A DNA stretch of 64,000 bases from assembly GCA_051294375.1 (NCBI GenBank), contig CM119267.1, positions 12,657,081 to 12,721,080 on the forward strand, in the 5' to 3' direction. Below are positions 12,292-50,734 of the stretch, piece after piece. Source of the DNA: Paraspadella gotoi. Lineage: Eukaryota; Animalia; Chaetognatha. The stretch's first letter is position 1. Each line of letters begins with the position of its first letter. The notes below the pieces were generated by a model. That model saw nothing but the letters and a program-made list of their open reading frames with translations. It had not been told where the DNA came from and did no database searches. The translations under genes and the position numbers were made by a program.

Positions 12292-14324
12292 TAGACATTC
12301 GCCTAAGGAATAACATGCGACGCTCCGGGCTGTTTTGCGCTGAGAAAGTAACTCTGGCCGAACGATCAGCTGGGGGTGCAAATCCTTCCGCTTGGCTCTC
12401 AGAGCTCTGCCTCGGCGCATTGGCTATCGTGTTTGCCAATGGTCGTGCTAAAGTCGCTGCTGCTGCATGGCGGCGGTCGACTCTGCCGTCGGCGCGGTCT
12501 CACGATTTGCTTCCTCTTGAGCTCTTAATTGTATTCTCTGCAGGGCTGTCCGCTGAGCAATATTGCGTCTTTCTGTCGCGCTCCCTATCCGAGCTGCGCG
12601 GTTCCGCTGAATTCGTTCCAGTTCTTGGGAATATTCTTCCTCTGCAGTGTCTACTCTCGTTGTATGTAGCTCAAGAGCTCGTTGCAGCACTTCATCCCTC
12701 CCTCTCCTGGTCTGCTGTAGGACTAACGAGTGGGAGTTGTGTCTATAAAGACTGACTGCGTCGGGGCCAGTGGTTGTCCTAAGCTATTGTGGTCGTCGAT
12801 GTTGTTGCTGTGTGGCGGTTCTCCGCTCGTTGCCTGTGTTGAGGTCAGAGGTTTCTGGAATGCTGAAGTATGCTGCGGGGGTGTGGGTGCCGGGGAGATG
12901 GTCTCACGACATTGATTACGTCCAGTTGTAGCTATCGTGGAAGGGTCAAGGAAAGCTGTAGTTGGATGCGGAATGTCGACGCGGAGGATCTGGTTCTAGA
13001 TGCAATTGGTTCATCATACAACCGCATTGCCCCCCCACCGTCGGTATTATCCGTCCACCCATCCCTCGTATCGCAGGTCTTCCAAAGCTGGGGCGTATCA
13101 TACCTCCAAAGGGATGTGGCAAGGTCTCGGAGTCCCGCCACAAGCGTGACGAAGAGGCGTGGCAACAATTGAGTCACAGTCCAAAGATCTTCGACGCCAA
13201 GATAATCATCTCTTGGAACATATGATTGCAGGGAAAGTGTGACGATGGAACCGAATTGATTGGTGATTAAATTTAATTGTCTCAATGAGTTTTTATCATC
13301 AGGAGATAATGTATTAATTACATTAGATGATCGAGTAAAAACGTTGTTTTAATAGCATAATAAAACATGTATTTTCCACATGAGATAAAAGCCAGACTGA
13401 ATTTAAATCAGTAAACAATTCATTAAGTAAACAATAGATTCAATACCAATGAGACATCTTCTGTTGAATGAGTTTGATTACTTAAAAACAAAAGGTTCAT
13501 TATCATATTAAGTTCTTTATCTTGATGTTTGTAGAAGAGGATCTTGTGTCGTCTGGTGGCCCAAGATTGGGAATCTTGGTGCTCCAAATGGCCGAGGGGG
13601 TTCAATCCCGATCCTGTCTCATAAGCTCGGGTTCAATCCCCGATGCCTTCTCTAGTGACCATAGGGAGAGGGGGTACGACGTGGCTGATCTACAATAGTG
13701 GTTGGTATGTTTAAATCGTTTCCAACTCCGTCGACTGTGAATTGCATGAGGGTGGTTGCCGGGTATCGAGGTTTCTCTTGGAGACCCTCCTGGGTCCTTT
13801 CCATCGCCGCAGTCAGATTTGGGGTTGGCCTGTGCCCACTGCTGGCGGTTTTTCGCCTTGCTTTTTGAAGCTTTGCTTCCAATGCTTCCCTCATGCTGTT
13901 GGCGGAGGTGCGGTCTGGTGGCGATCCGGTCTCCTCGTATTTGTCGTAAAGACGCTGAAAGGTCCGTAGGAGACCTCCAGTTGCTCCGCAAACTCCGTCG
14001 GGTTCGCAACTTCCTCATCTTCCTGGGGAAAGCCATCCTTCTCCAGGGTAGAAGCCATTATGAGGGGGTTCAAAGGAAAAGAAGCATTAAATATAAATGT
14101 TCACACAAAGGAATATCTAATTATTCTGTCTCTATGCATCCATATCTGCAATATACTCTATAATATTTCTAATCATATATAAAGGAGACTTATCGGCTTT
14201 TTACTGTAAACGAAACGAGTAACGAACTAGTCTCAGTGGACCTCACCTCGTCCGTTGACCCGTCAGGCTGTGACTGGGTGACGCCGTCGTCCACTCGCCT
14301 CGTCTTTGCTGGAAGTGGGCGCGG
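12292..14324 (-). mobile_element. gag: Truncated BEL/Pao copy: diverged U5 fragment (14205-14324), PBS, leader and 5' gag
   Basis: Reverse complement of 27240-28630 plus 41239-41305 (MASTLEKDGFPQ..., MREALEAKLQ..., MANTIANAPR...). It spans the Gypsy insertion point as an empty site (CAGCTGATCGTTCGGCCAGAG). Confidence 0.85.
13115..13660. mobile_element. ~540-bp insertion within the gag copy, with a tRNA-like segment
   Basis: Absent from the paralogues near 25100 and 27870. The plus strand has TGGTGGCCCAAGATTGG followed by two GGTTCAATCCC B-box-like motifs (~13598 and ~13630). Confidence 0.5.
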
Positions 14325-15310: not shown

Positions 15311-15321
15311 AACGATAATTA

Positions 15322-26869: not shown

Positions 26870-27352
26870 TGATGAAGATGCCTCCCCTTTTTCTTCATTT
26901 TATTTCATTGTTTCTCTTATTCATTGTACTATATTTCTTTTACTTTAGTGCTTTCGTGTATGCTTTTCTTTTTACTTTAGTTTAATAGTTTACCGGACCC
27001 CGTCTCTAAACGGCTTTTTACGGGCTATGAGCCCCGGCCTTTTCATATCATACACCTTGTCGCCACTTTTAGATACCACGAGCTTAGGGCCATGACCCAC
27101 AAGCACTGTCTGATGATAGACTCGTTGACTCTTGCAAGACGGTGCAACAGGTCTTGACACCCTCAACTTCGACGCTTCAGTCTTCATCACCATCATTACG
27201 GGTCGCGGAGACCGCGGCGTTCCCGGAGGACGTCGACTAGCCGCGCCACTTCCGGCGGAGCGAGGGGAGAGGCTAGGGGCCCACCCAGTACCGGCTGACG
27301 GTCGTCGCAAAGGAGACGTCTCAGGGATCAGGTTCGATACCTATCCGCGACA
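26870..27352 (+). repeat. BEL 5' LTR
   Basis: TGATGAAGATGCCTCCCC...CTATCCGCGACA; direct repeat of 50753-51253. Confidence 0.9.
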
Positions 27353-27363
27353 GTAAAAAGCCG
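27353..27363 (+). promoter_or_regulatory. Non-tRNA primer-binding site complementary to LTR nt 27011-27021 (candidate self-priming PBS)
   Basis: GTAAAAAGCCG directly follows the LTR's terminal CA. Its exact complement CGGCTTTTTAC is at 27011-27021 and 50897-50907. The same 11-mer follows the diverged LTR end at 14194-14204 (minus). Confidence 0.7.
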
Positions 27364-27494
27364 ATAGTCTCCGTTTATATATGATTAGAAATATTATAGA
27401 GTATATTACAGATATGGATGCATGAGATAGAATAATAGATATTCCTTCGTTGGAACATTTATATTTAAAGCTTCTTTTCCTTTGAATCCTCATA

Positions 27495-28630
27495 ATGGTT
27501 CCGCCTTGGAGAACGATGGCTTTCCCCAGAAGAGGAGGAAGTGGCGAACCGACGGAGTTTGCGAGCAACTGAGAGTTCTCTACGGACCTTTCATCGTCTT
27601 TACGACAAAGCCGAGGAGACCGGATCGCCACCAGACCCACCTCCGCAACAGTATGAGGAAGCATTGGAAGCAAAGCTTCAAACGCAAGACGAATAACGCA
27701 GCAGTGGGCACAGGCCAACCCCAATCTGACTTCGGCGATGGAACGGACCCAAAGGCGTCTCCGAGAGAAACCTCGATACCCGGCAACCACCCTCACGCAA
27801 TTTACAATCGAAGGAGTTGAAACGTTTTGAACATACCGACCACTATTGTAGATCAGACCACGCCGTACCCCTCACCCTTTGGAGTATGATGCGCCCCAAC
27901 ATCGGAAGATCTACGATACGAGGGATGGTGGACGGATAACACGACGGTTGGGGGGGCTATGCGGTTGGATGATGAACAATTGCATCTAGGAACCCGATCT
28001 TCTGCGTCGACAGTTCCGCATCCACTACAGCTTTCCTTGACCTTCCACGATAGCTACAATGGACGAGAATCCAAATGTCGTGGGATCATTTCCCCCGGCA
28101 CCACACACCGCAACATACTTGGCATTCCAGAACCCTCCGACCTCACACAGGCAACGAGCGGAGAACCGCCAACAGCAACAACATCGCGTCGACGACCACA
28201 ATAGCCAGAGGATCAACCACGGCCCGACGCCGTCAGTCTTTATAGATACATTCCTACCTCGTTAGTCTTACAGCAGACCCAGGAGAGGGAGGGGAGAAAG
28301 TGCTACAACGAGCTCTTGAGCTACACACAACGAGAGTAGACACTGCAGAGGAAGAATATTCCCTAGAACTGGAACGAATCAGCGGAACCGCGCAGCTCGG
28401 ATAGCGAGCGCGACGGAAAGACGCAATATTGCTCACGGACAGCCGCTGCAGAGGACATGCAATTAAGAGCTCTAGAGGGAGTAAATCGTGAGACCGCGCC
28501 GACCGCAGAGTCGACTGCGCTATGCAGGCAGCAGCGACTTAGCACGACCATGGCAGACACGATAGGCCAATGCGCCGATAGGGAAGAGGCTCTGAGAGCT
28601 AAGCGGAAGATTTGTACCCCCAGCTGATCG
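27495..28630 (+). pseudogene. gag: BEL gag N-terminal part (frameshifted; interrupted by Gypsy)
   Basis: ATG at 27495 is homologous to MASTLEKDGFPQ of the minus copy; the sequence resumes at 41239 after the Gypsy and runs into the gag ORFs. Confidence 0.75.
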
Positions 28631-29010
28631 TGTTGGAGGGATTTTATGTGGATCGCCCAGCGGGCGAAGTGGCTCACGTCAAGGGGAGCTGGAACGCTAT
28701 CGGGATCTCCAGGGCGCCCACCAATCAGGGCTGCAAGCGGACGGCGCTATCGACAGATGCTAAAGTCCTTACTGTATGGATCTGAGAAGATACAGAGGCA
28801 CACAATATGAATGAGGGAGACGCGGACCAAGAACCGTATATTCTGACACATATCATTTATTAATATAGCACGATACTCTTTTCAATAAAAGGAACAGATT
28901 AATAATGATAAGTAATGAAATCAATAAAGATTATTTATAACTGAATGAGTTTAAAAATGTTCGTAGTTTCCATCGAGTCCATCGGCGTCCACGCGAATCC
29001 GTCTCCAACA
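28631..29010 (-). repeat. Gypsy 3' LTR
   Basis: Direct repeat of 40821-41234; TGTTGG/CCAACA termini. Confidence 0.9.
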
Positions 29011-29026
29011 TTCCTTCCCCTTTTCT
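29011..29026 (-). promoter_or_regulatory. Gypsy polypurine tract
   Basis: Minus strand AGAAAAGGGGAAGGAA lies immediately before the 3' LTR TG. Confidence 0.85.
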
Positions 29027-29049
29027 AAATTGGTCGACCCGACCATACA

Positions 29050-32000
29050 CATCAGCGCGAAAAGCGCGCGCAGAATTTAAAGATTACAGGGCCATGATTG
29101 ACCTGTGGAAAAGGGCCGTTGACGGGGGTTGCGCATTTTCCTTGGAAAGTGCAGACCTAACGGACCAAAATGCGCCTCCGGTAACCTTTCTCGAATAGTC
29201 TCCACTGACGCCTCCCAACCGTGTTCCTCGCAACTGTCTCCGCGTCGACACAATTCGTCGGATACCAAGAGAATTCTCGGCGAAGAAGTCGAAAAAGAGG
29301 AACCTTTTTGGAACGTGAAAAAAACGGCGATGCGGAGCAGTATCAAGCATTTTGATCATTTCTGTGTAACGGCGCGATCTTTGTCGGGGAGCGAGTGGAA
29401 ACTTGATAATCGCAAAGAACGGATAGGAAATCGACCGCTCCGTCTTCTCTAAGCCTGGTAACGGGCGATGATACGCGATCGCAAATTCTTCTGCTTTAGG
29501 AGAGCGTTATGGAACTTTTTTCAATTCGGTATTGTTCGTCACTAACCAGACCGGTCGAATCTTTTCCCTCGCAGCCGAACGGGAAGATCGTGAAGCTCTC
29601 GTTGAAGGGAGTGCTGCACGATGGAACGAAGGGAATCAAATTCCGCTGCAGGAAACGTCTTACTAGAAGCACCACGAAGTTCAAAAAGATGTGAGGCGAG
29701 CGGCGAGTGAACTCTGCACTCGCGAAGCGCAGGTTTGGAAAAGTTCATTCTCTCCATCGCAATCGCCTTCATGAGAAATAAACATGTCGTTTGTATCTAT
29801 TTCGCCGCGCAAGAATGAATCCTTAAATGTCGGTACGAGATTTTGCAGATAATACGAAAATAATACCGAGTACAATGGTATTTTGCTGCTTTGAGCAAGT
29901 TCTAATAAAGCGCCAATTCGGTAATTAGAGAACTTTTTCCTAAAAATCGTCCGATGTCGTCATCGAAGATAGAAACCCGTTCCGCGTAATTTCTCAATTA
30001 CTCGGTCCTTTCGTTATACAGAGGGAGATGAATCCGACAACCGAAGCGATTTCCGCTGGTCGAACTGTTGAGCTGCAGCCTTGAGCATATGCGTCTTCGT
30101 CGCTTTCAAGAAATAATCCAGCAAAATCATTGGAGAGCAAGAAAGTATTTGAGCTGAACAGCGAATGCAGGCGGCCGGAACCAAACACTTTCTTGTCGAG
30201 AATGGCCAACATGAATTCGTTCAGGCGTTGGCTTAAAGAAACGCATCATCGCGCGTGCTAGGAAATAGCTTTATGTCGGTATCTGTTTCCTCATGGGGAT
30301 ATACAGAGGATATCGGCCCATTCTTCGATCTTTTTGTAATAGTTAGGGCCTGTTCTTCTTGAGGAACTGGTGAAAATCACGAAAGTGCATTTTCGTTATT
30401 GCACGAGCGCGTCAAGGCCCAAACCGACGCGAAGTCCCTGTCGCATGCCGAGCATGGGGCGGGGTCTCTTCGATCCACTACCTTTCTTTTCTGCTATCGC
30501 TTTGGTTTTTGACATCACAGGGATTTGTTGCGTCTCCGACACATGAGATGGCGATGAATCCAAAGGCTGCTGCTTCATGGCCTTCGCGGTGTCCCGTCAG
30601 GTCGGAATTAGCGTGTTCATCGACCTGAGGAGAGGAAGCAGGCTGGGCAGCGGCAACCATCGTAGGGGAGGCATCAACTCGTCGACCCTGGACTGCGGGA
30701 AAATGAAGATACAACAAGCTCGTGACGTCGATGGCTGAATCGTCCTCGACAAACACGATATCGATCTTCTTCCCCGTACGGATCTCCTTTTAACTTAATG
30801 CGGGATGGCTATCTTATGTTTCTTCAACCGACGAACCATTTCTTCTTTCAGCGTCGGTTATACGCATTTTGAAGAAGGTTCGCCATTCGTTTAGTGCGGC
30901 AATGCCAGTTTCTTCTCGCTTACTACGTGGCTTATTGTCCTCGTACGCCTTCGCAATGTCGAGAATGCAGCCGTTGATTGGGAAGCGGCGTCGCCGATTT
31001 CTCGCGCAAGGGTGCTTGGACGAAATCCAAGCATTCCAACAGGAATGTGACGGCGTCCCGAGATGCTCGTGCGTCGAGTGCAGCATAGAGAGTTGGCGAT
31101 GGACAATGAGGTATCGTCTTCTGCGAGTCGGATCTGATGATCTCTATGGAAGCTTCTTTTATCCAGAAAACGATCCTGAACACAAAATTGAAGAAGTACG
31201 CCAATGAGACCTGGAAATCCTTCAACCCATTGGCCTGTTTGGACGAACGACGAAGTTCGCAGGGGCCTTCCAGCAAGGCTCTGACAGAAGCCATAAAGGT
31301 CTGTTACTCAAGGTATTTTATCCTTTCTGCCTGGAGGGAGAGTTTTTGGCATAACTCTAACATGTCATCTTACGTTCTTGTATAAATATGATATGCAGCA
31401 GAATTTCGCGCAAAAGTTGGGACACCATCGCCACAGGCAAGATTTACCGACTGAACCGACTTAACTGGTAAACGACATTCAGTTCATCATTACCTACTTT
31501 AGCCGACAATGGACAGTCCGCTGCGCTCCCTTCTGTTGTCGAATCCATGATTATGGGCGATCGGTCTGGTAAGGAACGTGTCGAAGCAAACGCACCTACC
31601 TTTTGTCGTCGCCATGACTTCGGACATGAATAATACTCGACGAGGACATACTCTCAAGTTGAGGATTTTCTGCATCTCCTCGAATTCGTAGTCTGATAAC
31701 GAGCTTTATCGGTTGTAATTGTAGTGGCACGTGTTTTTCAACGGCCGGAATGTCGTCCGATATTCACCGACAGCTCTCTAAGATCGACATTATCCGCACC
31801 ATTATCTTCCGCACTTCTGCATCCAGCGATTGAGTGTGACTACCGGAATGGAGATGAGGGGAGAATGAATGAGATCTCAGGGCCGGCCAAGTCGTCGTTT
31901 TCTCGGATCTGGGCCGGTAGACAGCAGGAAATCCAGAGGATTTCCTGAGGCGGCAGAGCAGCAGGAAATCTGGGAAGATTTTCCGCTGATGGGTTTCTTC

Positions 32001-32090
32001 GCGAGCTCACGAGCCAGGGCGTACCAGACACTGCGTAGTTGTCTTTCTCTTGCCATATTTGCCACAACACTTTAAAACTGTATCTGAGTA
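29050..32090 (-). other. Gypsy 3' accessory region with fragmented protein-like ORFs of unknown function
   Basis: GC-richer ~3 kb between pol and the PPT, with a chain of minus-strand ORF fragments (30814-31086, 30478-30756, 29994-30212, 29681-29875, 29542-29772). No domain recognised. Confidence 0.45.
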
Positions 32091-32359
32091 AAATGTTCAA
32101 AGAAGGATTGTTAGATTAAATAGCCTCATATCTCATAAATAAGAAATCACTAACAGCAGAACCTAACAAGCTATAAAGCATTGGTTTATAACCAAGAAAA
32201 ACGAATAAGAAGGATAGAAAGCCTGCAGACTTTAGTTTTAATTCGCATTAATTATTCATAAGCACTTACAAATAATTCATACTTCAACAAAAGAAATAAA
32301 GAAAAAAAACAGAAAAACATTCATACCAACATACATATAGAGGTAAAGATTCCTTTTCA

Positions 32360-35300
32360 TTAGCTCACTTGCCAATGTGTAGTTGTTTCGAGATTCGCAA
32401 ATTAGCTTGGTTTTGAGCTTATGACGTATTGACTGGATCCAATCCTATAGGGTTTGATGCTAAAATCATATCTACTCTGTTCTTAAATCTAGAGCTTAAA
32501 ACTATGTCTGTGATTATTGGATTATCGTATAGAACTGTTTAAACTATATTCACGTTTACTCCTTGTTTTTGGGGAGTACTTGCTAGGCAAAGGGGTTGCT
32601 TAGGTTTTGATCTGATTCTCTCACTTCTTCTTGAAAGTCATGATTTCGGAACTACCTGAATTCAGGTATCCTTTGTACTTCGTTTCTACCTAATGGGATA
32701 GGTGGGGTTGTGTCATCCTTCATGGCTATTCGTTGAAATAAATCTTCTTACTGTAATATATCCTCATTCACGAGTCATTATTCGGTGAAGGGCGAGAAAA
32801 CTTCGTCAAATGATCCCTGTTCGGTTTCTTGAGGGAATCAATAGTAATTGTTTCCTTAATGAGAATCGCATAATTATTTTTCAGAGCGTTTCTAATCTTA
32901 TCATAGCATGAGAATAGTTTGATTGGCTTCACCCAGTACTTTTGCTTTTAGTTTTTGTTATTTTCTCCTAATTCCAATAAGTTGCGGCGTAGAGGTAGAC
33001 GTCTATTTCAGCATGAGCTTAAACCTACGGTTTCACGGCGTTTTCTTCTACATGGTTTGGCTGTTTTCATTCATTTCATTCTGGAGTCGTGTAGCTCTAT
33101 ACTTCCAAGAGTATTATATCAGGATTCGTCCAAAGGTACGGCTTCTGGTGCAGGATCCATAACTCTGTCCAGGGTTCCTCAGGCAGAAACCCACGTAACC
33201 TTGCTGTTTGCAGCCCGAAGGCGCTTGCCACAGCATCCTCCAGGTTTTCTGGAGGGGAAGTCTCGTCCTGCTTCTGTCGGTTGAGTTGGATAACTTCTCA
33301 GCAGACTGGCTCCGGTTGGTATAGGGAAATCTGAGCTCGTGCTTTGAATGCGGTTAATAACTGCAAACCAACTGACTCGGTAATTAACTTCTCTTTCCTT
33401 TGAAGTGAATTTTCATTAGTCATTATATTTCTGCGATTAACGATTTTCAGATTGGTTCCCGATTCTCTACGCATTTCTTCCAATGGTAGTTCTTCCACAA
33501 ACATAGGAAGGTTTCCAGGGCCTCCTCTGGGATTAGACTGCAATACTTTCGTTTAACGGTTAAGGACCACGCCATCTTGGCTCAGTTTATTACGCCTTTC
33601 CTTCTAGGAGAACTCGTTCATACACTCTGATCCTCCAACTTCAAGGTGAGGTCTTTAGCTTTTCTATCTGTAAGTTACTCTCCTTCTTTTGTTCTTCTTT
33701 TCCTTCTCTTCTTGATGCAAGCTCTTTAACTTCGGTTCACCTTTTTTCGCATATTTTGGACATAACTCGCTTCAGGGTCCCGTGGTTTAACTTATAACTT
33801 CGCCAACCAATCGATAATTGTGGCAAAGGAGGTGGTCCTTTCCAAAGAAGAGCAAAAGGTGTCATATCATTTTTTGCAAATTGGTGTGTGGTGTTGTAGA
33901 TCCTGTCGACTAAGGCAGGATGATCTGTCCAGATTGCCATACTGTTTGAGGCGTTTGGTAAGATCTTTTATCGAGAGTTCGGGTTTTGTCTCTCAACATT
34001 GGCCTGAGATTCTGGGCGTATAAGCGGACACTTGTCTTTTCTTTGTGCCGAGGACCTTACATGTAGCGTCCATACTCAGAGACAAAACTCTCCACCCATC
34101 ATCTGATGTCAAGCGTATTAGGCGGCCTGCGAAGCAGACTAGATTCCTCGAACGCTTTCGCAATGCCTATTGATTTTTGTTTTTTAAGTTGTACAATCAT
34201 TGATATATCCAGAAAAACACATCTTTGATACCAACACGATGTTTGAAGTTTCCAGGGGCAACTGGCCCAGTTGCACCAAATCGCAGATCACGTGGTCAAA
34301 CACGTTATCGGGCAATATATAGGTTGTAACATTGCTTTTCTTGAAACCTCTTGGTTTGCGGTTCTCGTAATTTGTCACCAATTGCACAATTTCTGGTAAA
34401 TCTGAAACATTCTCGGCCAATAGTGGGCCAGACTTAGCATATCGTTTATTTTATCTTGCATCCTAGTTAATTGCTTGCATTGTCCAGACATCATAGAACC
34501 ATGAGAATCCTGAAGAAGCTTCTTTGCACACAGGCCTGCTTCGGGTAATACAAGCCTGCAGCACAGGAGAATAATACCTTTATGAAGCCTTTGCTGGTAC
34601 AAAGCACTTGAGCAAGATGAAATCTATTAAAATTTCTCAAAAACCCTTTTCAGAAAGAAATGAATTTCGTGTCTCTCTTCTCATCCCTGAACAAATTCCA
34701 TAACCTTAGAAATTATTAGATCGGGCTTTCTTGTCTCTGTTTTCAAACAAAGCTTTCGGCATCTAAGCGTGACAACATTAGGATTATCTAATCGCATCAT
34801 GCCTAAAAAGAGCCCACTTCAGTTTGTCGCTTTATACTCCTTTGTGCGTAATCGTCTTATTCGCAAGGTCTGCGTTTTTCACCTCTCCTGCTCAATTGCA
34901 TCTGCAATCAGAATGTATTTTGCCTTTGATTTATGTAGGAGCTCGCATCATATTGATTCACAGCTCTGATAGGCCATCTGGCTCCTTCTTCCAGCTAGCT
35001 ACACTCTTAGCGCATCTAACCCCCTTTTTTTCTTCTTTTCCAAAGAAAGATAAAGGCTCATGGCTTCTGTTATTGCGATAAATCTGCCTGTACTCAAATA
35101 ACTGAGTTGGCGCGAAATCGCACATAGAGAGCAAAAATCTCGATCATAGGTGGTACCATTTTTGTTGAGGTTTTGACATTTTCTTTGAACCATAAGAAAT
35201 GAACCTTTTCTCTTTCCCATCTATCTTCTGGGTTAGCACATTAACCCAACAGCCAGGAAGAGAGTGCCTCACTTTTAACAATACAAGTGTTTTTCAAAAT

Positions 35301-38300
35301 TAGGATAAGACATGATTTTGATACTTGAGATACAAATTATGATCTGAGTTGTTCAAAGCTTTTGATGTACATCTTTCCAGACCATCAACACCATCAGGGT
35401 AAGGTCTAGAGAGTGGTTGAGCAATTACTTACTGTCAATCTTTAACATAATGGCGGATAGTATCCCGTAAGCCCAAGAAACGTATTTACAGGCGTTCTAC
35501 GTCTTCAGGGGCTTTCACTATGTAACGGACTTTTTTCCACATTGGCAGGATCCTGGGGCTTATTCCGTTCTTCGAGAAAGGTTATACTGTCCAAGACATA
35601 CCACAGTTCCTGCCGCAAATTTGCACTTTGAAGGCTCTGAGCATTAAGACCCAGCACCTTCCAAGGCAGTCAGCACCTGATCCAAGTGTTTTGAGGTGAA
35701 TTCCTCCTGTTGTTGTCATGGCCAACCAGAATATCATCATGTAACTGAATGATATTTGTTTGTGGGGCGCAACCCGACGCAGCACGAGCTGCATGAGTGA
35801 GCTAAGGCCAGCTTGGGGAAATTTTTAGCAACCCATTGAGCAACTTGCATCTCAATGCCTTGATTCGGTTGAGAAAGCAAAAAATTTGCGGGTCGTCGCG
35901 GGCGTGAATAGGCATTCTGCCCAAAACCCTTTGGTTAAAGTCCAGAGCATGTGAAGATTTTTAGAGGCGTGTCGAGGCGCTGAATGAGTCTTTCAATCCT
36001 TGGGCAACGGTATAACACCTTATTGCATCTTTCGTTCAACTTTCTTCTAAAATCGGTAGAACAGAAATCTCCAACCACCAGACTTTCATCTTAATCAACA
36101 AGATAGGAGCTGAATACTGCGGCTGGTTTGAATGACTAATTCAAGGTCCAGTCAGCAATCATCTCGAATGCCTTGTTTGTTGATCACATCACGCATCTCT
36201 GTCTTGTACGGCGTTATGGAGGCAACAGCCAATGGGTGGAGACATCTCTATCTTTGGATTAGCTCGGTATATGTATATAGATTTGTCCTCCCATTAATCC
36301 CTGTTATGTTTAGAGGAATGCTTCATCTCGTCATTTTACTTTCAAAAGTTTGAAGTCTTCTTGTTTTAATAGGGGAGCGCCTCCTTAGCCATATTTTTGT
36401 ATCGATAGACACACTTTCTTGGCGTCCTGGTGGAATAATTTATCTATCCACTTCTTTGGTGAAGCTTTGGGTGAAGCTTCTGCTTTTCTTTAAAGAATCC
36501 TGAGGAGGATCCACATTCAACCCCTCTTCTAAGTCAGTCTTTCGATTCCAGATTGCTTCATCTTACGCCAATTTCATAGGCGGAGTCTCCACTATGAGTA
36601 GAGCAGAGCATATCACGTTTCAAAGAAAAATATGTCAAACGTCTCACTCATCCGTAAACTTCGGCACTAACCAGAGATATGTCCAGCCCCTCAGTTTTCA
36701 TACTGACCTGGACCCAATGATTGAGTTAGTCCATCGAATCTGCCCCCATCAACGTAGGCACATGCTCTACCAGCCCACACGTGGACCTCCATGAATTGAG
36801 AAATGGGTCCAGTGACAATTGTTTTTTGTCGCTCGGGGGCATGACACTGTCAAGCTTAAGTTCTTGGCATCGAGTGAATCTTGATAACGGCCGGGATAAC
36901 TGTCTCGCGGCACATTGGTTGACAGAAGCAGGTCCAGAAATACGATGAGATACCTCTATTAATGGATGACCGAGCTGGTTTCCGTAGAAACCCGTACGTC
37001 GTCCTTCAGAGGGCCACAAAGATCTGAAATTACAGAAAAAAGTCCCACCAAAGAATAACTGGCTGAACCTAGGCCCTACTACTTACAATTTCATTCAAGA
37101 TCACGTATTATCTTATTTCTAAACTTATACGTTAACTATGCCACTGTAATGTACACGCGTTCCATTGATTGGCTTTGCCCTTAGAGAAGGATATGTTTGC
37201 GGAAAGCTACGATCCTTATATGGGCGGGATTTGTCTCTTAAGAAATTTCCTCACTAGTCTGCAACTCTTTGTACAGCCGGATATCAGCCTAAGCTGTGGC
37301 GACCTTCTTACCATCTATTTTATCCAAAACTCAGCTTTCCATTTAGGTTTTTATATCTAGGTTCTCATCAATTTCGATCTCTGCTTGAAGCCCATAGCAA
37401 GGATCGCTTCCTTACGTCTTCGATGACAGTTTCGGAATGGAGGAGGATTCTTTTTCTGCCTTTTCTGGCCTTTCTCCGATTCACTCAGAAATTGCGCCTG
37501 AGGCCTCTTCTCTACTTTGGTTTTCACGCCTGTCTTCATCTGAAGTGTTGGCTGTACGCATATCTCTTCACGATTACGGGTCATATCACAGATCGTCTCT
37601 GACGATTTACTCGATTCCCTTTGCCGATAATCCTGTTTTTTCGGTCACTCGACGAATCATCACGCAGGCGACTGCCCCAGATTCGCGATCACACGTACCG
37701 GTATATAGCCGACGTTTCATTTCACGGCCATAATTGATCAACGGCTGCGACTGTCACGACTATCGTACGCTACTTGCTATCCTACTAACCAACTTCTTTC
37801 CCAAGATGATGACTTTCGTTTACGACCACGTCGGTCTGCTCTCGACTACTAGGAATTAGAAGAACAGCAGAGGAGTCGCGGCGCTAGGAGAATACGTCTC
37901 TACTACCACGACTCTCTATCCCTATCTTTCTCTTCTCCTACGATCTTGCTTGAGCGGTCCGAAGCCTAGGTTCTTCAAATTTTGTAGACAAACAGCGACG
38001 GCATACGCTCGGATTCGCAAGGCGGTCGTACCGACCTTGGCAAGCTTCCAGTAAAGGCTACAGGAATCTTTCAAAGGTTTCTGATACACCCAGAATCTAC
38101 CTTCCTTGAGTGATCTGAACACGCCAGGCGCTCACTTTTTCGCTGCCATTAATTGTGCGTGAATCCTTCATTCACAGCGACCTAAGTCAATAGCAATTCC
38201 CGGTAGGCTTAGCAGAGCTCTCCGAAAATCTGACAAGAAACAGCTCCCGGGGCTCTCGCATGCGCCAACCTACAATCCTTTCTACGTATTTGTTGACTTT

Positions 38301-38676
38301 TCTTAATAATCCTCTGCAGCCAATGATGCATGGACTCTCTGCCATCCCATTCAACTGTAGATTTCTTGGCTTGCAACGGTATGCCTCTTTGGAGGCATAT
38401 TTAATACAGGTAATCATTTTGGCTTTAATTGAGCATAAGTTCTGTCTGAGATCATCTTTAAAGACCTCACGAGCTGATCGTCCAGCTTTCAGCGGCAGCC
38501 ATTGGAAAAAGGCATCAATCATGTTATTCTGTCTTCAACGCGGCTGAATGTAGCCAACAGCAACAGCTTCTCAAAGAGCTCTATCATTCCATCGAAATCA
38601 TGCGTCTCAGAATCAAACTGTCCACAGGAAGGGACGAAGCTGCTTTCTCACGAATTCGGTAAATAGCCAGGCCCAT
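32360..38676 (-). pseudogene. pol: Gypsy gag-pol (gag, protease, RT, RNase H, integrase), frameshifted
   Basis: Gag fragment WLPLKAGRSAREVFK (38187-38522); RT YM(D)DIL-like at ~35740; RNase H TYDRDF at ~35150; integrase H-C/C region and VFDHVICDLVQL at 34184-34600. The 3' end is approximate. Confidence 0.85.
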
Positions 38677-38779
38677 ATTGAAGGGTTTACATAAAATTAA
38701 TAAGTAAGTGGCAAAAATCAAGGCAACAAGAAACAATCCAAAGAGCACAAAATTTAATGTGTTCTTGAAGGGAAGAGGT

Positions 38780-40450
38780 CACTCAAGCTCTGTCAAACCA
38801 GAGGATGAGTCATACGGGAACATCTGTAATATCGTCACTATGAAAGGAGTGAAGTGTCTTGGGCGGACCCTCAGTAATATGTTTAAGGCAACATCTCATG
38901 AAGGTTAGTTTGCATATTGGGCATTTAAAGCGACACTCTCGATACTTCTTGATGATATAATTATTAGTTATCCAACGAGTTTGGGGCTTGTCAAAGGAAA
39001 GCAGGGCCCAATTTTTGAAGCTAAGCGACTAAAGATATCAGAGTTATTTAGTGTAAAGGATGTTAGATTCCAACTCAGCCTCAGGATGATCAAAAAGAGA
39101 ACACTCGATTCTTGAGACACAAACCTGAGCCAAAGACACACTTTGTATTCAGAAACTTTTGAACGGCAAACAATTAGGTTTCCACTTGTCGAAGAAGAGT
39201 GTTCAGTCACCTGGCTGACACCGATAAATCAATTCGTAGACAGGATATTGGCCAGTTGAAAGTTAATGTCATCGAGATTGACCTCAAATGAAGTAATTTT
39301 GAAAGTTCAGGATAAGAGGGATTGTTTCTCGATAAAATCGATCAATTCTCCCATCTGGTTCGACGCAATTAGCATAATGATCAACCAATCGCACTCTTGA
39401 TTCCACATATCCAAGACCCATGGTATATAAAGTTTACCTTGGTCGTCAATGGTTCCTCTATGTGCGAGGGAATGTATTTAGTCATTTTCTCTAATATTTT
39501 CGTAAATCTAATTTTCGCATTTGAATCGCCTCGTGAAATTTGAGGTATGGTCCGGGGCTTGGTGCTTATTTCTCGATTGACCCCCAAAAAAAAAACCAGC
39601 AAGGGTTTGTAAATCTATCCAAGTCTCTCATCGCTTTCCTAAGAGCATCCAGCCAAATCGGCGTAGATAACTCATTGGGCTTTCTCTTCTTCCTCTTTGG
39701 GCTTTTCTTGCCGTTCTGCCTTTCGTTCTTGATCTTATCTTTTCTTCCCATTTTTATTACATGATCGAGGCAGTGACGACAGTCATCTCGTATTGCAACA
39801 GTGCATGAGGTACAAAATGGTAAAAATATTTGGGCAATGCCACGATTAGTGTTCCCAAAATAACATAAAAATAGCAAAGATTTTTGTGAGAGAGGTTGCA
39901 TATTAAAAACGTTCGCAAATTGAGTAATTTGTAGAAATAAAACGTTGTTTAAAAAAAAAATTTGGATTTTTTTTATAAAATGATTGTAGAAGATATAAAG
40001 TTTGATATGTTGATTAAAAACAGTTCATGTTAAATGACAGCCGGTGTCAGCACTATAGGTTCAGCACTTTCTTGCGTATTCGAAGAGAAAGCGACATTTA
40101 AAAGAACACCAATCGTCCATGGAACTTCCAGACGGATTGTAAAATCCGTTGTCCTGATATCCGCAGGGAGCCAGGCAAGCCTACCCCTTGTCTATGTCAC
40201 TTTGGAAGTGGGTGTGAAATCGATCGGCAAGGCATGTTCCACGAAACTTTGGAGTGAAAAATAATGATATGGCAATGATGGGGTTATTCGGAGCCACCGT
40301 GCTATATGTAGAGGCGGACTTGACAAAGAGCGTTGGGTCGGTGCCACGGAAGAGCATGTGCTGGCCAGCCAACTCTTCCGACTTCTTAAGACAGGGACGT
40401 CCTGTTGCGTCCTGTAGTTGCAAGTTATCCAGATAATACCACGCCGACAA
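38780..40450 (-). pseudogene. Gypsy extra ORF(s) upstream of gag (ORF0)
   Basis: 38780-39440 is homologous to the open 198-aa ORF at 51279-51875. Further fragments lie at 39566-39901 (CTSC...CRHC and a basic stretch) and 40181-40450. Confidence 0.6.
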
Positions 40451-40805
40451 CTGTTACTGGCAATCGCAGAGGCCTGCCGTCTCTACGTCGAAGCGGTTTG
40501 GACTGCGCGAAGGACCCAAAAAGGCCAAACAAGTCTCAGCGCCAGCAGATCTGCTCCCAGGACCAAGGCTCGATCGAAATCACGGAGAAAATTGAATTGA
40601 GTTAGAAAGAACAATAACTTCACAGTCTGCTGAACACAAGGCTATCAAAACCAGCAGGACTGCTGATGGAAAAACAGTCTCCAATCCACATGCCTCAGAG
40701 TTGACCCGAAAGTCCTATGGGTAACGGAAGCACGCTATCCAGAGAAAAGTAAGCTGTCTGTGCAACTGTCGACGGTGCATGGTTACTCCACAAAGAGTGG
40801 ATATA

Positions 40806-40818
40806 GGACGATGCACCA
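40806..40818 (-). promoter_or_regulatory. Gypsy PBS, tRNA-Gly-like
   Basis: TGGTGCATCGTCC two nt after the 5' LTR; resembles the complement of the tRNA-Gly 3' end (...GGCCGATGCACCA) with one mismatch. Confidence 0.7.
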
Positions 40819-40820
40819 CT

Positions 40821-41234
40821 AGTTGGAGGAGATCTTTATGTGGATCGCCGCGGTACCGGAGCGCCTTCCCGTTCTCACGCGAGGTGGTCACGTCAAGGGG
40901 GGAGCTGGGAACGCATCGCGATCTTCCAACGGCGCCCACAATCAGGGCTGCAATGCGGCCGTGTGTCGACCAGATGCTAAAGTCTTACTTGATGGATCTG
41001 AGAGAGTACAGAGGCACACAATATGAATGAGGGCAGACGGCGACCAAGAACGTATATTTCTGGACACATATCAATTTTTAATATCACGATACTCTTTTCA
41101 CTAAAAGGAAACAGATTAATAAAGCTAAGTAATTGACAATCAATAAAGATTATTTTATTAACTGAAATGAGTTATAAATGTTCGTAGTTTCCGATCGAGT
41201 CATCGGCGGTCACGCGAGATCACGTCTTCCAACA
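40821..41234 (-). repeat. Gypsy 5' LTR
   Basis: Direct repeat of 28631-29010; one terminal base differs (AGTTGG). Confidence 0.9.
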
Positions 41235-41238
41235 ATCG

Positions 41239-43281
41239 TTCGCGCAGAGTCACTTTTCAGCGCCAAACGCCCGTCGGCGTCGCATGTTTTCCTTAGGCGA
41301 ATGTCTTTCGGCCATTGAAACCTTACTCAACGCACAAATCAGGTGCTAGAAAGCAGAGAGAGGAGAAGAGAGACGTCGTGAGAAAGAACAGATGATTAGG
41401 ATTCTCAATGAACAGAATCAAGAAAGAGAACGAATGACACAGTATTTTCTTGAACAAGAAAGAGAGAGACAACGGATGGCGACGACTCTTAATCAGGTGG
41501 CCACGGCGGTAGAGAGGATCACCCTCAATTCGGCAGGACAACCGCCACCGCCGCCACCAGGGCCTCACCGCCGTACATCGGCGTTTGATGCACCCCCTAC
41601 AGAATCAATGCCTCTTAGACAAAGTGCGGAGCCGCCGCCGGCAATGTCCGACCCANNNNNNNNNNNNNNNNNNNNNNNNNGGGGGAAGGGTCTAGTGAAA
41701 GCAGGTACGGCTCAGGATTTTCTCCCCAACCTCCCGTTACACTGGCGACTCAAACCTATGGCTAATCCTCAGTTTGAAAGATATCTATTTTCCGCAATCG
41801 GCTGAATCTACGATTCGGATGTTGAAAAAGACTCCGCCCAGAGGAGGTCTTCATGAGTGCAGGATTCAAAAAAAAAGTGGGTGTTCGAGATCACATGCAA
41901 CAATGGGAATCGGTGATGTCACAACCTGCGCGTTACCGACCAAATGCGGCATCAAGAATTACGCTTTTGGTTTGGAGCGCTTGCAAGGTTAAGTTACAGA
42001 AATATTTTCACCGTCGTGATTATGCCGCTGCCGGTCTCGAAGCGATAGAAATGTTACGACGAGAGTGTCGGTTCGCCGGACGCTTCACCTTCTGAAATGC
42101 TGCGAGATTGTCTTGCTGGAGGTAAAGTGACGGAAGCTACTGATATTGACGAGACAATTACCCGGTTGGAGAACATTGTAGGGATAGCAGAGGCAAAAGG
42201 TCGTATTCGTGATTTGAACAGGGATACGGTAATTGCCGAGATCCTAGAAACAAAATTTCCTCAGTGGAAAGAAAAATTTGCAGAGGAGAACTCGCAATGT
42301 TTGTATCTGACCAACCGAAAAAGAACAATCTATGAATTTATTCAATTTTTAAAAATACACCTTTTAGCGGTTAAGTCCGTTTATCATAAAAAAAAGAAAA
42401 CGTCAACGGCCTCGGTAGCGGCGGTGATAGCATTGAATGCTCCCCCCGCGATGCAAAACGGTGGGGGCCCATCCGGAATTCCAGGTGGAGATCAATCTAA
42501 CGAATCATTTGACTCCTTGGACGATACCGACCCAACACAGCCACCCCCAAAACCGAGAAGACGAAGACGACGACGGAGCAAGGAACAAGTGCCGAGATCG
42601 GCCTTGCCGGCACCGACAGTGGATACTGGTTGCGGCTATGTCGCAGCACAGCAAGCAACACCGCAGGCGAATCCTATGTTGCCACAATCTGTTCAGTCGA
42701 CGCAGATTGTCGGGCGACCACAGACACAAGCCATTGCACCAACAATGAATCCAGGCGCCCCAATGTACGCATCAACGCCGGTCCGGCCTGCAACGCCGCA
42801 TTGTCACTTCTGCGGCCAAGCTCACATGGTTTGGGAATGTGCCGGATACTTAGCGCTTGGAATCCAGGCAAGAGCTGATCTTATTCTAGGCAGAAGGATT
42901 TGTTTTAAATGTTTGAATGGTAACCACTTAGCGAGTAAATGTAGGTTTGGAGTTTTGTGCTCTTTATGTAGAGGTAACCATCACCAGACCTTACATGGGA
43001 TGGCGCCAGTGCGTCGATCCAACCCCCCGATAACAAATGCACAATATCAGCCAACAACGACATATGTACAACCCCCATCTTATGCCACTCCCGCTTTCAC
43101 CCCACCCACTGTCCCTTCTTACTCCCCTGCGTCAATGCCCCAGCCCCTCTATCAGGCGCCAACGGCGGCCAACAACACATCGACGGTGAATAGCGGAATA
43201 CCGGATCTGAATCAGACAATTCCTATGAGTTTAGCGTCCGNNNNNNNNNNNNNNNNNNNNNNNNGTACGGCGTCAAGTTGA
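41239..43281 (+). CDS. gag: BEL gag, central and C-terminal parts (frameshifts and gaps)
   Basis: ORFs 41392-41805, 41853-42095 and 42097-43281. Triple zinc knuckle CHFCGQAHMVWEC, CFKCLNGNHLASKC, CSLCRGNHHQTLH is diagnostic of BEL/Pao. Confidence 0.88.
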
Positions 43282-43326
43282 CTGGCGGTTGCGTCCGCCC
43301 CAGGCGAGTCGACCTTTCGTCCAGTT

Positions 43327-45853
43327 GTGCCGGTTGTCGTAGAAACGGGCGGACGCAAGCGCACAACTTACGCCATGATAGACTCAGGATGTAATCGATG
43401 TGTTTTGAAACAAAATATCGCTGACGAATTAAAATTAGACGTTAATGCGCATTCCCATGAGAATCAGGACCCTCGATTGCGACCAGACGATGCATCGAGA
43501 AGTGACCGATTTCAATGTGGAACCACTCGATGGAACTTTCTCAATTTCTGTACGCCGCGCAATAGTGGGAAAACTGCTGACGTCGGAGGATGACCTCCCC
43601 CCTTCCAATGAAGATGTGGCCGGAAAACCACACCTAGAAGGGGTTTCCTTTCCCAACCTCCCAGACAAGGAGGTTGGACTGCTCCTCCCAGCAGGGTTCG
43701 CTTATACCTGGATAGGCGGCGAAGTTCGACGTGGCCCCGCAGATCAGCCAATTGCATTAATGACCGATTTTGGCTGGACGCTTGTTGGACCGCGGCCCGG
43801 TATGAGCAGCAATGATATACATTGTGCCCGCATAACAGCGGAATATGTCGAAGAAGATGAGAAGAAAATCCAAGAAGACATTCGACGTCTGTTTCATCGC
43901 GATTTCGTCCCGGCGCCTAGTGCTAAGAAGCTGGCGTCGGTTGAAGACGAATACGCGGTAAAACAACTTGAAGACACAATACGATTTGACGAGAAAGAAG
44001 GTCATTATTTTGTCGGTTTACCCTGGATGAGAGGTAGGGAAAAGGCGGCAGAAATATTGAATAGTAGAGATTCTGCCACAATGGCATTAAACCGGTTACA
44101 ATCTCTTATGCGAAAACTCAATAGATATCCCGCTGATAAAAAAAGGGTAAATGAAGAAATGAAAAAATTCGTCGAAGAAGGTCATGCTCGTAGAGTTGAC
44201 ACCGACGATGTCCCACCCGGTAAACCAATCTGGAACCTTCCCGTCCACGTTGTCGTACGACGAGACAAAGACAAAGTACGAATTTGCCACGACGCACGTG
44301 CCAACGTGAGAGGTAAATGTTTAAATGACGAATTACTCACTGGACCCGACTACATGACGAATATGCTGGGCGTTATGCTCCGATTTCGTCGTCATAGGGT
44401 GGCACTGGCCGCGGATATCCGCGGCTTCTTCCATCAAGTATTTGTCGATGAAAATGATATTCATTGCTTTCGTTATTGGTGGTTCGAGGATGATACTTGT
44501 ACCAAACCTGTTCTCTTCGAACTTAGAGTGCACATTTTTGGCGCAAAGAGTTCACCGTTGGTCGCAAATTACACCCTCAAGACNNNNNNNNNNACGTTGG
44601 AAGGGAAGCTTCCAATGGAAGTCGTCGAAGCCATTATCCGACAGTTCTATGTCGATGATTTCCTCGGTTCTACCCCAAATGAGGAAACTGCGCGTGAGTT
44701 GAAGAAGGGCCTCGTCGAAGCCCTCCGCCTTGGCGGCTTTGAGTTGACAAAATGGAAATGTTCAGTTCCCGATGTCCTGGAAGATGAACCGGACAAATCA
44801 GCAGATCTAAAAAAGACCTTTACAGATGGGAATGACGACGACACCAAAGATGAGCGCCCAAGAGATAAAGTATTGGGTGTTGCTTTCTCATTTTTTGATG
44901 ATTATTTTTCCCCTTGTGTTAACCAGGATAAAGTCATGAAACGTTGTATCACTAAAAGACAAATTCTATCCCTAACAGCCAGCTTGTACGACCCATTGGG
45001 AATCGTCTCACCATTTACATTGAAAGGACGTAATTACTTTCAACGCGCGAATGAAGCGACAACGGACTGGGATTCACCTCTTCCGGATGACCTCGTACAG
45101 GACTTCAACACCTGGCGAATACAGATGCCAGAACTGGAGTCCATCAAGCTGCCGCGATGGATCGCCACAAGAGAAACAACAGAAGATCCCGCGGAACTGC
45201 ATGTATTTTCTGATGCCAGCCATGATGGCTATGGTGTAGTAGTGTATCGCAGAACTGTACCACAAAATCAAGGGAAATCTCATGTTGCATTTATTATGTC
45301 TAGGTCCCGAGTAACGCCCGTTGATTCCTCCAAAGCATCTCATCACAATTCAATCCCGAGACTGGAGTTGACAGCGGCATGCCTCGGTGCGGAAATCCGA
45401 CATACGGTGGTTGAAGAGATGACCAACGATCATTACGAAAAGGTAGTTATGTGGACTGATTCAGAGACTGTTTTGAAACAAATTTTTGATCGTAAATCTA
45501 AATTTGCAGCTTTTTTCAAAAACCGCTTGTCTCGAATCAGGGAATTAACCGATGTGGCAGAATGGCGCTACGTTGCCACAGATGACAACCCTGCAGATGA
45601 CTGTAGCCGCGGATTACCGTCTGGCGATCCAAAATGGCGACGCTTCCACCAAGGCCCCGAATTTTTGTGGCGCCCGGAAGAAGAGTGGCCCGAACAAAAA
45701 TATCTCCAAAGCCATTCCCCGCGGATATCCTCGCGATGGAATATAAAGATGCCGAATCGTCCAAAGGAAAACGTACAAAAGATTCGGACATTGAACACTG
45801 GTCGCTGCGAATCGCGCGGCAGTGCTCAAACTCCCACAAAAAACTTCGTCTGA
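43327..45853 (+). CDS. pol: BEL pol: aspartic protease, reverse transcriptase, RNase H
   Basis: YAMIDSGC protease motif (frameshift near 43450); KVRICHDA, FGAKSSP, FYVDDF (RT); HVFSDAS, SIPRLEL, WTDS, NPAD (Pao RNase H). Confidence 0.95.
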
Positions 45854-47331
45854 TCGCGACGATAAAATCCGTGATCATGAATTGGATAGAGTGGAGGAAA
45901 GCATTGCGCCATGACGTAGATGCTAAACCAAAAAAGATGAAATGGTTAAACCTAAACGACTTAAAAAACGCTGAACTCATCCAATGTCGAGCGTTGCAAA
46001 AGCGCTATTTTTCGGATGAGTACCGCCAACTTTGGGATAAAGAAGTTCGATCCCCAGATGCGCGGGCAGAGCTGACGCAGACGAGATCCCCGCTGCGTCA
46101 ACTCAACCCCTTCCTAGATTCATCAGACGTTATTCGAATAGGCGGTCGAATCGGAAAAGCGGACTTGGACTACGAGACCCGACATCCGATCGCGCTACCA
46201 AAAAACGATCAAATTGTCCGCGATTATATTCGGCATGTACATGAAAAGGAAGCGCACGCAGGCGTAGAGCACACCCTCGCAAATATCCGACGCCGATTTC
46301 ATATACCTTCAGCGCGTCAGGTTGTGAGATCCGTCATAAAGCGTTGTGTTAGTTGTCAGAAAAATTTTCGCGCGCCAGCCACCCAAAAGATGAGTGATCT
46401 TCCCGAGGATCGACTCACTATCGGAGTTCCTTTTGGAGTGACAGGCGTGGACATTTTTGGCCCCTTCAATGTCGTCCACGGAGGTAGAGGCAGCACCAAA
46501 CGATGGGTGGCCTTATATACGTGTTTTAAATCCAGAGCTGTCCATCTTGAGGTTTTGCATGACCTATCCTCTTCCTCATTTATTAATTCAATAATCCGGT
46601 TCAATTCCCGCCGTCCCGGAACGAAAAAATTTTATAGCGACAATGGGACGAACTTACGTGGAGCGGATACGGAATTGAAAGCGGCAGTAGGAAGATGGAG
46701 GGAAGAACAGGTTCATAAGAAAATGGTTGAATATGGGGTCGAATGGGTTTTTGGTCCTCCCCACGCCCCGCAATGGGGCGGAGTATGGGAGAGACTCGTA
46801 CAATCTACAAAAAAACATTTAACCGCAATTCTGAAAAAAGATAAATTACAACTTGAAGTTTTGACCACAGCTTTAGCTTCCGTTGAAAGCATACTTAACC
46901 GCCGTCCGTTAACACGAATTGGCGAAGACCCACGTGACATGGAAGCTCTGACGCCAGCCACAATCCTCTACCCGAGTGTCTATGCCCCTTCGAGAGCAAT
47001 AATCGTGCCCCCAGAATCCGTCGATGGCGATGCCCTAAGGAGCACGTGGAAACAGGCAAGACGTTTGAGCGAAGAGTTTTGGGATCGATGGAAACATGAA
47101 TATGTGGTTACCCTTCAACAGCGCCAAAAATGGCAAACTACACAGGAGAACTTAAAAGAAAATCAACTGGTTTTAATGGTAGATGAATTAAAATCACGCG
47201 ACCAATGGAGATTGGCGCAGATCATTGATGCCGGCGACGGCACGCACGTGAGGCGTGTGCGTGTGCGTACAGCGGACGACAAAATTTTTGAACGCGATCG
47301 TAATAAACTTGTGCCACTTGAATGTGATTAA
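45634..47331 (+). CDS. pol: BEL integrase (continues pol after a frameshift near 45720)
   Basis: HEKEAHAG...CVSC zinc finger; GVDIFGP, SDNGTN, GGVWERLV DDE core; FWDRWKHEY C-terminal motif. Confidence 0.95.
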   Translation: MATLPPRPRIFVAPGRRVARTKISPKPFPADILAMEYKDAESSKGKRTKDSDIEHWSLRIARQCSNSHKKLRLIATIKSVIMNWIEWRKALRHDVDAKPKKMKWLNLNDLKNAELIQCRALQKRYFSDEYRQLWDKEVRSPDARAELTQTRSPLRQLNPFLDSSDVIRIGGRIGKADLDYETRHPIALPKNDQIVRDYIRHVHEKEAHAGVEHTLANIRRRFHIPSARQVVRSVIKRCVSCQKNFRAPATQKMSDLPEDRLTIGVPFGVTGVDIFGPFNVVHGGRGSTKRWVALYTCFKSRAVHLEVLHDLSSSSFINSIIRFNSRRPGTKKFYSDNGTNLRGADTELKAAVGRWREEQVHKKMVEYGVEWVFGPPHAPQWGGVWERLVQSTKKHLTAILKKDKLQLEVLTTALASVESILNRRPLTRIGEDPRDMEALTPATILYPSVYAPSRAIIVPPESVDGDALRSTWKQARRLSEEFWDRWKHEYVVTLQQRQKWQTTQENLKENQLVLMVDELKSRDQWRLAQIIDAGDGTHVRRVRVRTADDKIFERDRNKLVPLECD

Positions 47332-47641
47332 CCATATATCTGGACTTTACTATAGAACTATTATTTGTACATTTCGTAAAGATATATATACCCCCTTTAC
47401 CTTTTTTTAATAACTCGAACTCGAATTATGAAAACTGGTCTCCAGCTTATCATTATTTTTATTTTTATCTATTTATTTTTTTTTTTTTTTCTTTTTTTTT
47501 TTTCTCTTCTCGTTGTTGTAAACTCACTGCAATGAAATAAATATTTGCTTGCTTTAATGCCAATCTCTGGATTTCCAAAGAAATAGTTATTAAATTTTTT
47601 TTTATGTTTACTTAATCCAGAGTTTCTTTGCTGATAACAAA

Positions 47642-49736: not shown

Positions 49737-50734
49737 GATAGCGTCACAGTCTAGTGAACTGTAACAGCGTGACGCTCCTTCAGACCCGGAAAATGTTAAA
49801 GGACTTGATTTTTGAAAATGGACTTGTTCTTATGCGTGAATTTTCTCGACGACTTTACAAGCTACGGAGTTCCGCTATGGTCGGAACTCCGACCTTCCGG
49901 ACTTTCCAGGAATACCGGCGTCGCTTGTAAAGCAGGTATTATTCTTGGTTTCTGTAATAAGTTAATAAGATATAATTTGGTGACATTTTATTCAAAATGT
50001 AAAATAACGTCTATTGAATTCATGGTAATTTCGTGGCATTACGTTTCGTCATAAATTTTTTCCCTTTTTTTCTTTCCTTCCTTTAGTTTAAATTTTAGTT
50101 ACATTTCACTTTCGAATTTTGTTTAAATTTGCCATTTACGTAACGGAATTCCGACGTTTGTTTTTTAAATTTAGTCACGTTTCATAATTTGGTAAAAAAA
50201 AAAAAAAAAAAAATTCTTTTTTTTATTACGGATTTCCGTTAAAACTGTTTAATTTTTTGGCGTTTACGTAACGGTTGTCCGACGTTTTATTGTTACAAGA
50301 ATTAAGTATATGTTACACTGATAAAACGTTGCTTTGTAGAATTAAGTTTAGTTTCAAAGACGTACATTATTTCGTAGGATTTTCATTCACACATGTTCCT
50401 TTTTTTTTCTCTCTCTTTGATCATGTAACAAAGTAAGAATTGAAATTGAAATCATGATTATTAATTGTTACGATAGAGAAACATAGGTTTTTTTTTTTTT
50501 TTTTTTACGTCATGTCATTACGTTTAAAGACGGGCTAAAAAGAAAATTATAATTAGACTTATTTCATTTTTCTTTTCATTCTCTTTTCTCTCTCCTTTTT
50601 TTTTTTACTTTTTTTCTTTCCCCTCTCCTGCTTTATTCTCGTCATATCTTCTTCTCCTTTTCTTTTCTATTTCACCTTTACCTTTCTCTACTCACCTTCC
50701 TCTGATAGAGGGCAAATATGGCCGTTTTCCCTCC

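Follow-up and report, generated by a model that had tools for sequence, protein, structure and literature searches.

How does an LTR retrotransposon begin minus-strand DNA synthesis when no tRNA-type primer-binding site follows its 5' LTR? The question was raised by an element in 64,000 nt of the chaetognath Paraspadella gotoi (contig CM119267.1, positions 12,657,081 to 12,721,080, forward strand; hereafter the window), for which a first-pass annotation had proposed a BEL/Pao element that primes itself with a short piece of its own transcript. Features are collected in Table 1, with positions counted from the first letter of the window. On the evidence given below, minus-strand DNA is probably primed in the manner of Tf1 by the predicted 5' end of the element's own RNA. 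That this BEL/Pao lineage does without a host tRNA and is primed by its own RNA, by whatever route, is very probable.

Table 1. Coordinates of the BEL/Pao element, its candidate priming features and related sequences in the window.
Feature	Positions	Strand	Remarks
5' LTR (TG...CA)	26870..27352	+	483 nt as assembled; ends CGCGACA
32-nt block kept in diverged sister families	26999..27030	+	12 nt upstream, 11-mer, 9 nt downstream
Candidate self-primer, predicted RNA 5' end	27011..27021	+	CGGCTTTTTAC, exact complement of 27353-27363
Segment after primer	27022..27028	+	pairs with leader 27364-27370 (7 bp, 2 G-U) or forms hairpin 27022-27034
LTR segment, candidate pretzel side helix	27202..27209	+	8 bp with U5 end 27344-27351; 72/2,000 shuffles
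Candidate non-tRNA primer-binding site	27353..27363	+	GTAAAAAGCCG, directly after LTR
5' region ahead of gag	27493..28630	+	frame-broken reading frame, no known family
Nested Gypsy-type LTR element	28631..41234	-	LTRs 28631-29010 and 40820-41234; 4-bp duplication ATCG
gag	41350..43281	+	three Cys-His knuckles; interrupted by frame changes and N gaps
pol	43265..47331	+	protease (DSG), RT, RNase H, integrase, DUF5641; three frames as assembled
Extra Pro/Ser/Thr-rich ORFs 3' of integrase	47594..49764	+	
3' UTR 14-mer	50521..50534	+	complements first 14 nt of block, 13/14
Polypurine tract	50743..50752	+	adjoins 3' LTR
3' LTR	50753..51253	+	501 nt; 11-mer copy 50897-50907; AGTAC after
Second BEL copy, partial	12293..14324	-	U5 14205-14324, binding site 14194-14204; without nested Gypsy

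The element was classified by its pol, which delimits the BEL/Pao family (a tRNA site is a listed trait). Profile searches returned PF05380 (E = 1.8e-42), PF18701 (E = 2.5e-21), PF17921 (E = 9.2e-13) and PF00078, and both the Pao-type RT/RNase H region and the DUF5641 integrase tail are present. The RT motif YVDD lies at 44648, and RNase H shows four acidic motifs (45203, 45359, 45452 and 45587). The gag with its three knuckles comes first and is followed by PR-RT-RH-IN; a triple Cys-His knuckle is named for Sinbad in excerpts of PMC554778. The BEL/Pao identity first proposed was borne out by the PF05380, PF18701 and PF17921 matches, and no chromodomain was found by profile search, so the element belongs to BEL/Pao and has no Tf1/sushi membership. 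Its length is ~11.8 kb after subtraction of the nested Gypsy (28631-41234). The best of 21 protein matches was unnamed and 46% identical; 17 of the 21 were unnamed, and no named subclade member occurred among those read in 10 protein clusters. The region ahead of gag (27493-28630) is common to the second copy and to a third, N-gapped fragment at 24837-26101. The extra ORFs 3' of integrase gave no family match, no atlas match and no membrane segment, and an env identity was rejected for them (no family or atlas match; best 19-residue hydropathy <1.0). Similar low-complexity ORFs, again with no family and no membrane segment, lie 3' of integrase in a distant marine-metagenome relative (L002, 2969-4807).

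The position of the LTR ends decides what counts as the primer-binding site. The 509-column alignment of the 5' and 3' LTRs has 469 matches, 6 substitutions and 34 gap columns; given 6 substitutions against 34 gap columns (~7%), the assembly is indel-rich. Nine of the 11 runs listed carry the stretch, all as contigs and from three studies, with no RNA carrier in the list; four runs were aligned, of which the best-matching may be the window's source sample. Taken together, run contigs and window show AAAAC, AGTAC or the polypurine tract directly before the TG start of the LTR, and the binding site, AGTAC or TTTAT directly after its CA end; these three different flanks per side fix the LTR ends. 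The junction of LTR and binding site is covered by contigs in 3/4 runs, with no substitution in either 11-mer among the differences listed. The sequence confirmed that the 5' LTR ends CGCGACA at 27352 and is followed by the 11-mer without a spacer. No TGG occurs in either LTR (0 TGG and 8 CCA on the LTR + strand) and the first one downstream lies at 27415, 62 nt from the binding site, as expected from the earlier claim that a TGG-type site is lacking. An LTR that extends to a conventional TGG site, the outcome which the first-pass annotation had held against its own reading, was ruled out by the LTR ends in the run contigs and by the TGG scan.

The BEL copy in the window is flanked by AAAAC on the left and AGTAC on the right, which do not form a target-site duplication. 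AGTAC, the right flank in the window, stands to the left of an LTR in one run contig; since a sister Gypsy runs through the AGTAC site uninterrupted, AGTAC resembles a 5-bp target word within a Gypsy. Because its two flanks differ, the window copy is either the product of recombination between two insertions or a join made in assembly. The flanks from run contigs were absent from the window at up to 2 mismatches. The sister Gypsy (51254-57946, + strand), ~79% identical to the nested one, hosts the insertion of the BEL 3' end, and its 5' part is absent from the window. The nested Gypsy measures 12.6 kb, sits in the BEL 5' region and has 5.7 kb (29011-34750) between its pol remnant and its 3' LTR. 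With a Gypsy inside BEL and the BEL 3' end inside the sister Gypsy, each family is nested in the other. A reading of the window as a junction of two BEL halves at 28664-29017 and 40879-41241 was rejected, those segments being the nested Gypsy LTRs. Farther upstream, a 3.7-kb tandem duplication (4799-8540 and 8576-12218) lies around an N gap, differs mainly by indels and is possibly an assembly duplicate. Palindromic MITE-like repeats occur at 15320-16209, 14334-14505, 21463-21634 and 20806-21041, and one of these repeats starts where the LTR of the second BEL copy breaks off (14324).

The binding site was compared with the LTR that precedes it. Exact search of the window placed the primer-side 11-mer at 27011-27021 and 50897-50907, confirming the complement described earlier, and the binding-site form at 27353-27363 (+) and 14194-14204 (-). 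The pairing is exactly 11 nt and was the longest among 50 start offsets tested around the LTR end, at offset 0, in agreement with the earlier statement that it ends at the LTR boundary. Complementarity of at least 11 nt at offset 0 was reached by 34/20,000 dinucleotide shuffles of the LTR (19/20,000 in a repeat run), and a match falling inside the conserved 32-nt block by 0/20,000. The self-complementarity of LTR and binding site is real and non-random. A published screen for self-primers, as given in excerpts of PMC6317226, calls for at least 10 bp beginning 0-5 bp after the LTR; the BEL element has 11 bp at offset 0. The nested Gypsy served as a control and has a TGG-type site at 40818, after one spacer base; its complementarity to its own LTR does not exceed 5 nt.

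A real pairing might still be structural (for packaging, dimer formation or a translation switch), or the match might be a coincidence of a promoter block, with priming achieved in some other way; this is quite improbable. The looser rule (at least 10 nt, offsets 0-5) was met by 256/20,000 shuffles (1.3%) and very many elements were scanned, and elements that lack both a tRNA site and a self-match do exist, namely Skipper (PMC5006619), SM-Tcn1 (PMC2864245) and fungal GalEa (PMC5445492), as described in excerpts of these papers. However, the strict and in-block null rates are far below the lax one, and there is no reason for a structural helix to end with the base that immediately follows CA, where the 3' end of a primer must sit.

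A host RNA was considered as the primer, either a Pol III-type RNA with a U-run end and a 2-nt spacer or a tRNA half produced by a cut in a Lys(UUU)-type anticodon loop, in which case the LTR match would be due to chance or secondary. The ICTV profile assigns host-tRNA priming to the family (PMC8742986), and half-tRNA primers are known in Copia lineages (passages of PMC6317226 and PMC5445492). Against this, a host RNA demands an independent exact match within the conserved block, which no shuffle produced, and the polypurine tract adjoins the 3' LTR, in agreement with blunt ends without a spacer. The element lacks the 18-nt site that would pair with a host tRNA's 3' end, one of the traits listed for BEL/Pao. 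No tRNA or Rfam family was detected in the window, and a search of the LTR for a tRNA- or ncRNA-like piece gave two sub-threshold Rfam matches and nothing else. The usual anticodon arm of animal cytosolic tRNA-Lys would differ from the BEL 11-mer, which also counts against a host RNA. Priming by a host RNA is highly improbable.

Evidence absent from the first-pass annotation was obtained from sister families, which were taken from the contigs of four runs and compared by their LTR segments. In these contigs the 32-nt block is kept while the LTR flanks drift. Sister type 1 (3/4 runs; contigs of 328, 776 and 4,091 nt) matches 26999-27030 alone, at 30/32 letters, of which the 2 differences could fall inside the 11-mer; its flanks of 30 nt each match the 3' LTR copy at 16/30 and 11/30 letters (by eye, ungapped). 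Sister type 2 (2/4 runs) matches 26999-27095 with 7 differences, 6 of them listed at 27040-27062 and the seventh, unlisted, such that it could fall inside the 11-mer. Sister type 3 (1 run, 742 nt) matches 27014-27035 and also the beginning of the 5' frame, a loose contig end being tied to the main match through the 22-letter side. The 12 nt ahead of the primer are unchanged in this type, the primer's first three letters CGG are replaced by CTGC, and a TATA run lies 26 to 19 nt upstream of where the primer starts. Only 8 bp of pairing would be left in type 3 if its binding site is unchanged, and this type could strengthen or weaken the case for self-priming.

In the 3' LTR of the main family, a non-canonical TATA word (TACATA, 50869) lies 28 nt upstream of the 11-mer. 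In animal core promoters the start site is expected at this distance from TATA. The 11-mer lies in the sole LTR segment that these families share, at start-site distance from a TATA-position word. Conservation of the block in these contigs adds support to self-priming, and promoter function alone could account for part of this conservation. A promoter-like word resembling GTTA-A-AGTT (26982-26991 and 50869-50878) precedes the block by a constant distance in three families and is exchanged for a TATA run in a fourth. LTR-bearing relatives were found neither in viral contigs nor in genome contigs; metagenome contigs yielded 4 related loci at 37-42% identity, with no block and no evident LTR in any.

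The second BEL copy had been cited for its clearly diverged U5 beside an identical 11-mer. Both observations are true: the U5 differs from that of the main copy at 27/110 aligned letters and the binding site is unchanged. The argument built on them, however, carries no weight. Of its LTR this copy has just 120 nt of U5, followed by the binding site, and its LTR-side 11-mer and block (the pairing partner) are absent from the 64-kb window. Over binding site and leader it departs from the main copy at only 6/127 aligned letters (95% identical). At this divergence the 11-mer would stay unchanged in about half of cases, and the second copy is therefore no evidence for the pairing. A stem ending at the LTR terminal AC is possible in both 27301-27351 and 14206-14258 (-), with different letters in both arms; this comparison is a two-sequence hint, with fold z-scores that are not significant.

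For Tf1-like priming, transcription would start within a few nt of 27011, and the first ~11 nt of the RNA would fold back onto 27353-27363, steadied by side helices. RNA folding was predicted over a range of start and end points. The 11-bp helix was present in both the minimum-energy and the centroid fold of 27011-27420 (z -2.68), and its mean pair probability was at least 0.93 in 54/54 folds whose start was 27012 or earlier and whose end fell at 27380-27500. It ranged from 0.25 to 0.98 in 18 folds ending at 27600 and was at most 0.5 in 8 folds starting at 27015. Tf1 requires a three-helix pretzel (excerpts of PMC10085805), and Tf1-like side helices are possible in the model of the BEL leader. 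Besides the U5-end helix (Table 1), several segments can pair on the leader side (candidates of 7-8 bp), the best of which was reached in 590/2,000 shuffles; each side helix is weak by itself, and the U5-end and leader side helices jointly were reached in 21/2,000. The pairing of 27022-27028 with 27364-27370, chosen after the fact, was reached in 13/2,000 shuffles.

After folding, the RNase H of the element would cleave after 27021, and RT would extend the primer's 3' C, copying TGT... and leaving a blunt CA end. Such blunt ends, without a spacer, agree with a polypurine tract that adjoins the 3' LTR. Strong-stop DNA would end at 27022 and move to the 3' repeat, where the 11-mer would be recopied, and plus-strand copying of the primer would maintain the match between primer and binding site. 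The steps beyond the sequence match are all modelled on Tf1, whose first 11 bases pair and whose RNase H cuts between bases 11 and 12 (excerpts of PMC7175516).

A primer could also be derived from the element by another route, which seems unlikely: an upstream RNA start, splicing or trans-splicing would give a tailed primer, and the 3' LTR copy or a short LTR RNA could serve instead. Splicing would use an acceptor ~30 nt upstream, and the 5' tail of a tailed primer may pair with the 3' UTR; the short LTR RNA would end at a T run. Conservation of the 12 nt ahead of the primer equals that of the primer itself, upstream RNA starts fold equally well, and neither LTR contains AATAAA or ATTAAA. Two pyrimidine-run-AG words occur in U3 of the LTR, and a pyrimidine run plus AG stands directly before 50867. 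This acceptor nevertheless failed a strict pattern, and only ~7-16 nt separate the TATA-position words from the start of the block, too little for transcription to begin there. A splice-made primer is also unneeded, the 11-mer being contiguous in the LTR with no AG before it.

The possible pairing of such a tail was followed to the 3' UTR. Over its first 14 nt the block matches 50521-50534 at 13/14, the only match of this quality between the LTR and the 11.5 kb of internal sequence, and one reached in 2/1,500 UTR shuffles. It was, however, found post hoc; about one 13/14 match is expected by our estimate between a 500-nt LTR and 11.5 kb, and the pairing (-17.4 kcal/mol) has a probability of ~0.9 that falls to 0.24 in a longer fold. 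A bipartite self-made primer, with its 5' tail on the 3' UTR 14-mer and its last 11 nt on the binding site, is held to be distinctly unlikely; if true, it would bridge both genome ends for strand transfer.

The preferred reading, priming by the RNA 5' end as in Tf1, was set beside known systems. The BEL element resembles Tf1/Tf2 (S. pombe), Tj1, Tosmo1-3 and Tcry1 (Tf1/sushi and Tcn1 groups of Ty3/Gypsy) in having an 11-nt primer candidate in the LTR that is complementary to a binding site after the LTR, no tRNA site and possible side helices at both flanks of the binding site. It differs from them in its BEL/Pao polymerase and gag, the absence of a detected chromodomain, its extra ORFs, its length and the candidate pairing with the 3' UTR. 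With BEL/Pao it shares the triple Cys-His gag, PR-RT-RH-IN, PF05380 and PF18701, TG...CA LTRs within 0.2-1.2 kb, a ~10-nt polypurine tract and an apparent 5-bp target word. The ICTV profile of Belpaoviridae (Semotivirus) gives an 18-nt tRNA-Arg or tRNA-Gly site and 4.2-10 kb (PMC8742986), unlike the 11-nt self-complementary site and 11.8 kb found here.

Self-priming is described for Tf1/sushi, and excerpts of PMC6317226 predict it for Tcn1 and for the TAR lineage of plant Ty1/Copia (Houba, Osr-1), where the prediction, in another superfamily and another kingdom, draws on the same kind of complementarity between LTR and binding site; excerpts of PMC4600332 predict it for Tj1 too. No report of self-priming in BEL/Pao was found in the literature searched, which excluded subscription journals, Repbase, GyDB and supplements. 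None is made in the accessible text of PMC3601003, PMC6317226, PMC5445492, PMC7175516, PMC5006619, PMC2864245 or PMC5443660; that of PMC3118150 has no passage on primers, and those of PMC554778 and PMC3286476 add nothing on BEL/Pao self-priming. The initial self-priming reading stands in its BEL/Pao assignment, the missing TGG, the LTR boundary and the non-random match; its second-copy argument fell, and its confinement of self-priming to Tf1/sushi was overstated, given the predictions for Copia TAR and Tcn1. Cer7 is said to encode its own primer RNA, for which the literature searched gave no support.

Self-priming in this element would give an annotation rule for LTR elements without a tRNA site. 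If self-priming is true here, BEL/Pao would be the third LTR superfamily with this ability, after Tf1/sushi Gypsy (shown) and TAR Copia (predicted), and cleavage of an RNA duplex by the element's RNase H would be an easily regained ability. It would also bear on the order in which tRNA priming and self-priming originated, a question raised in excerpts of PMC3601003.
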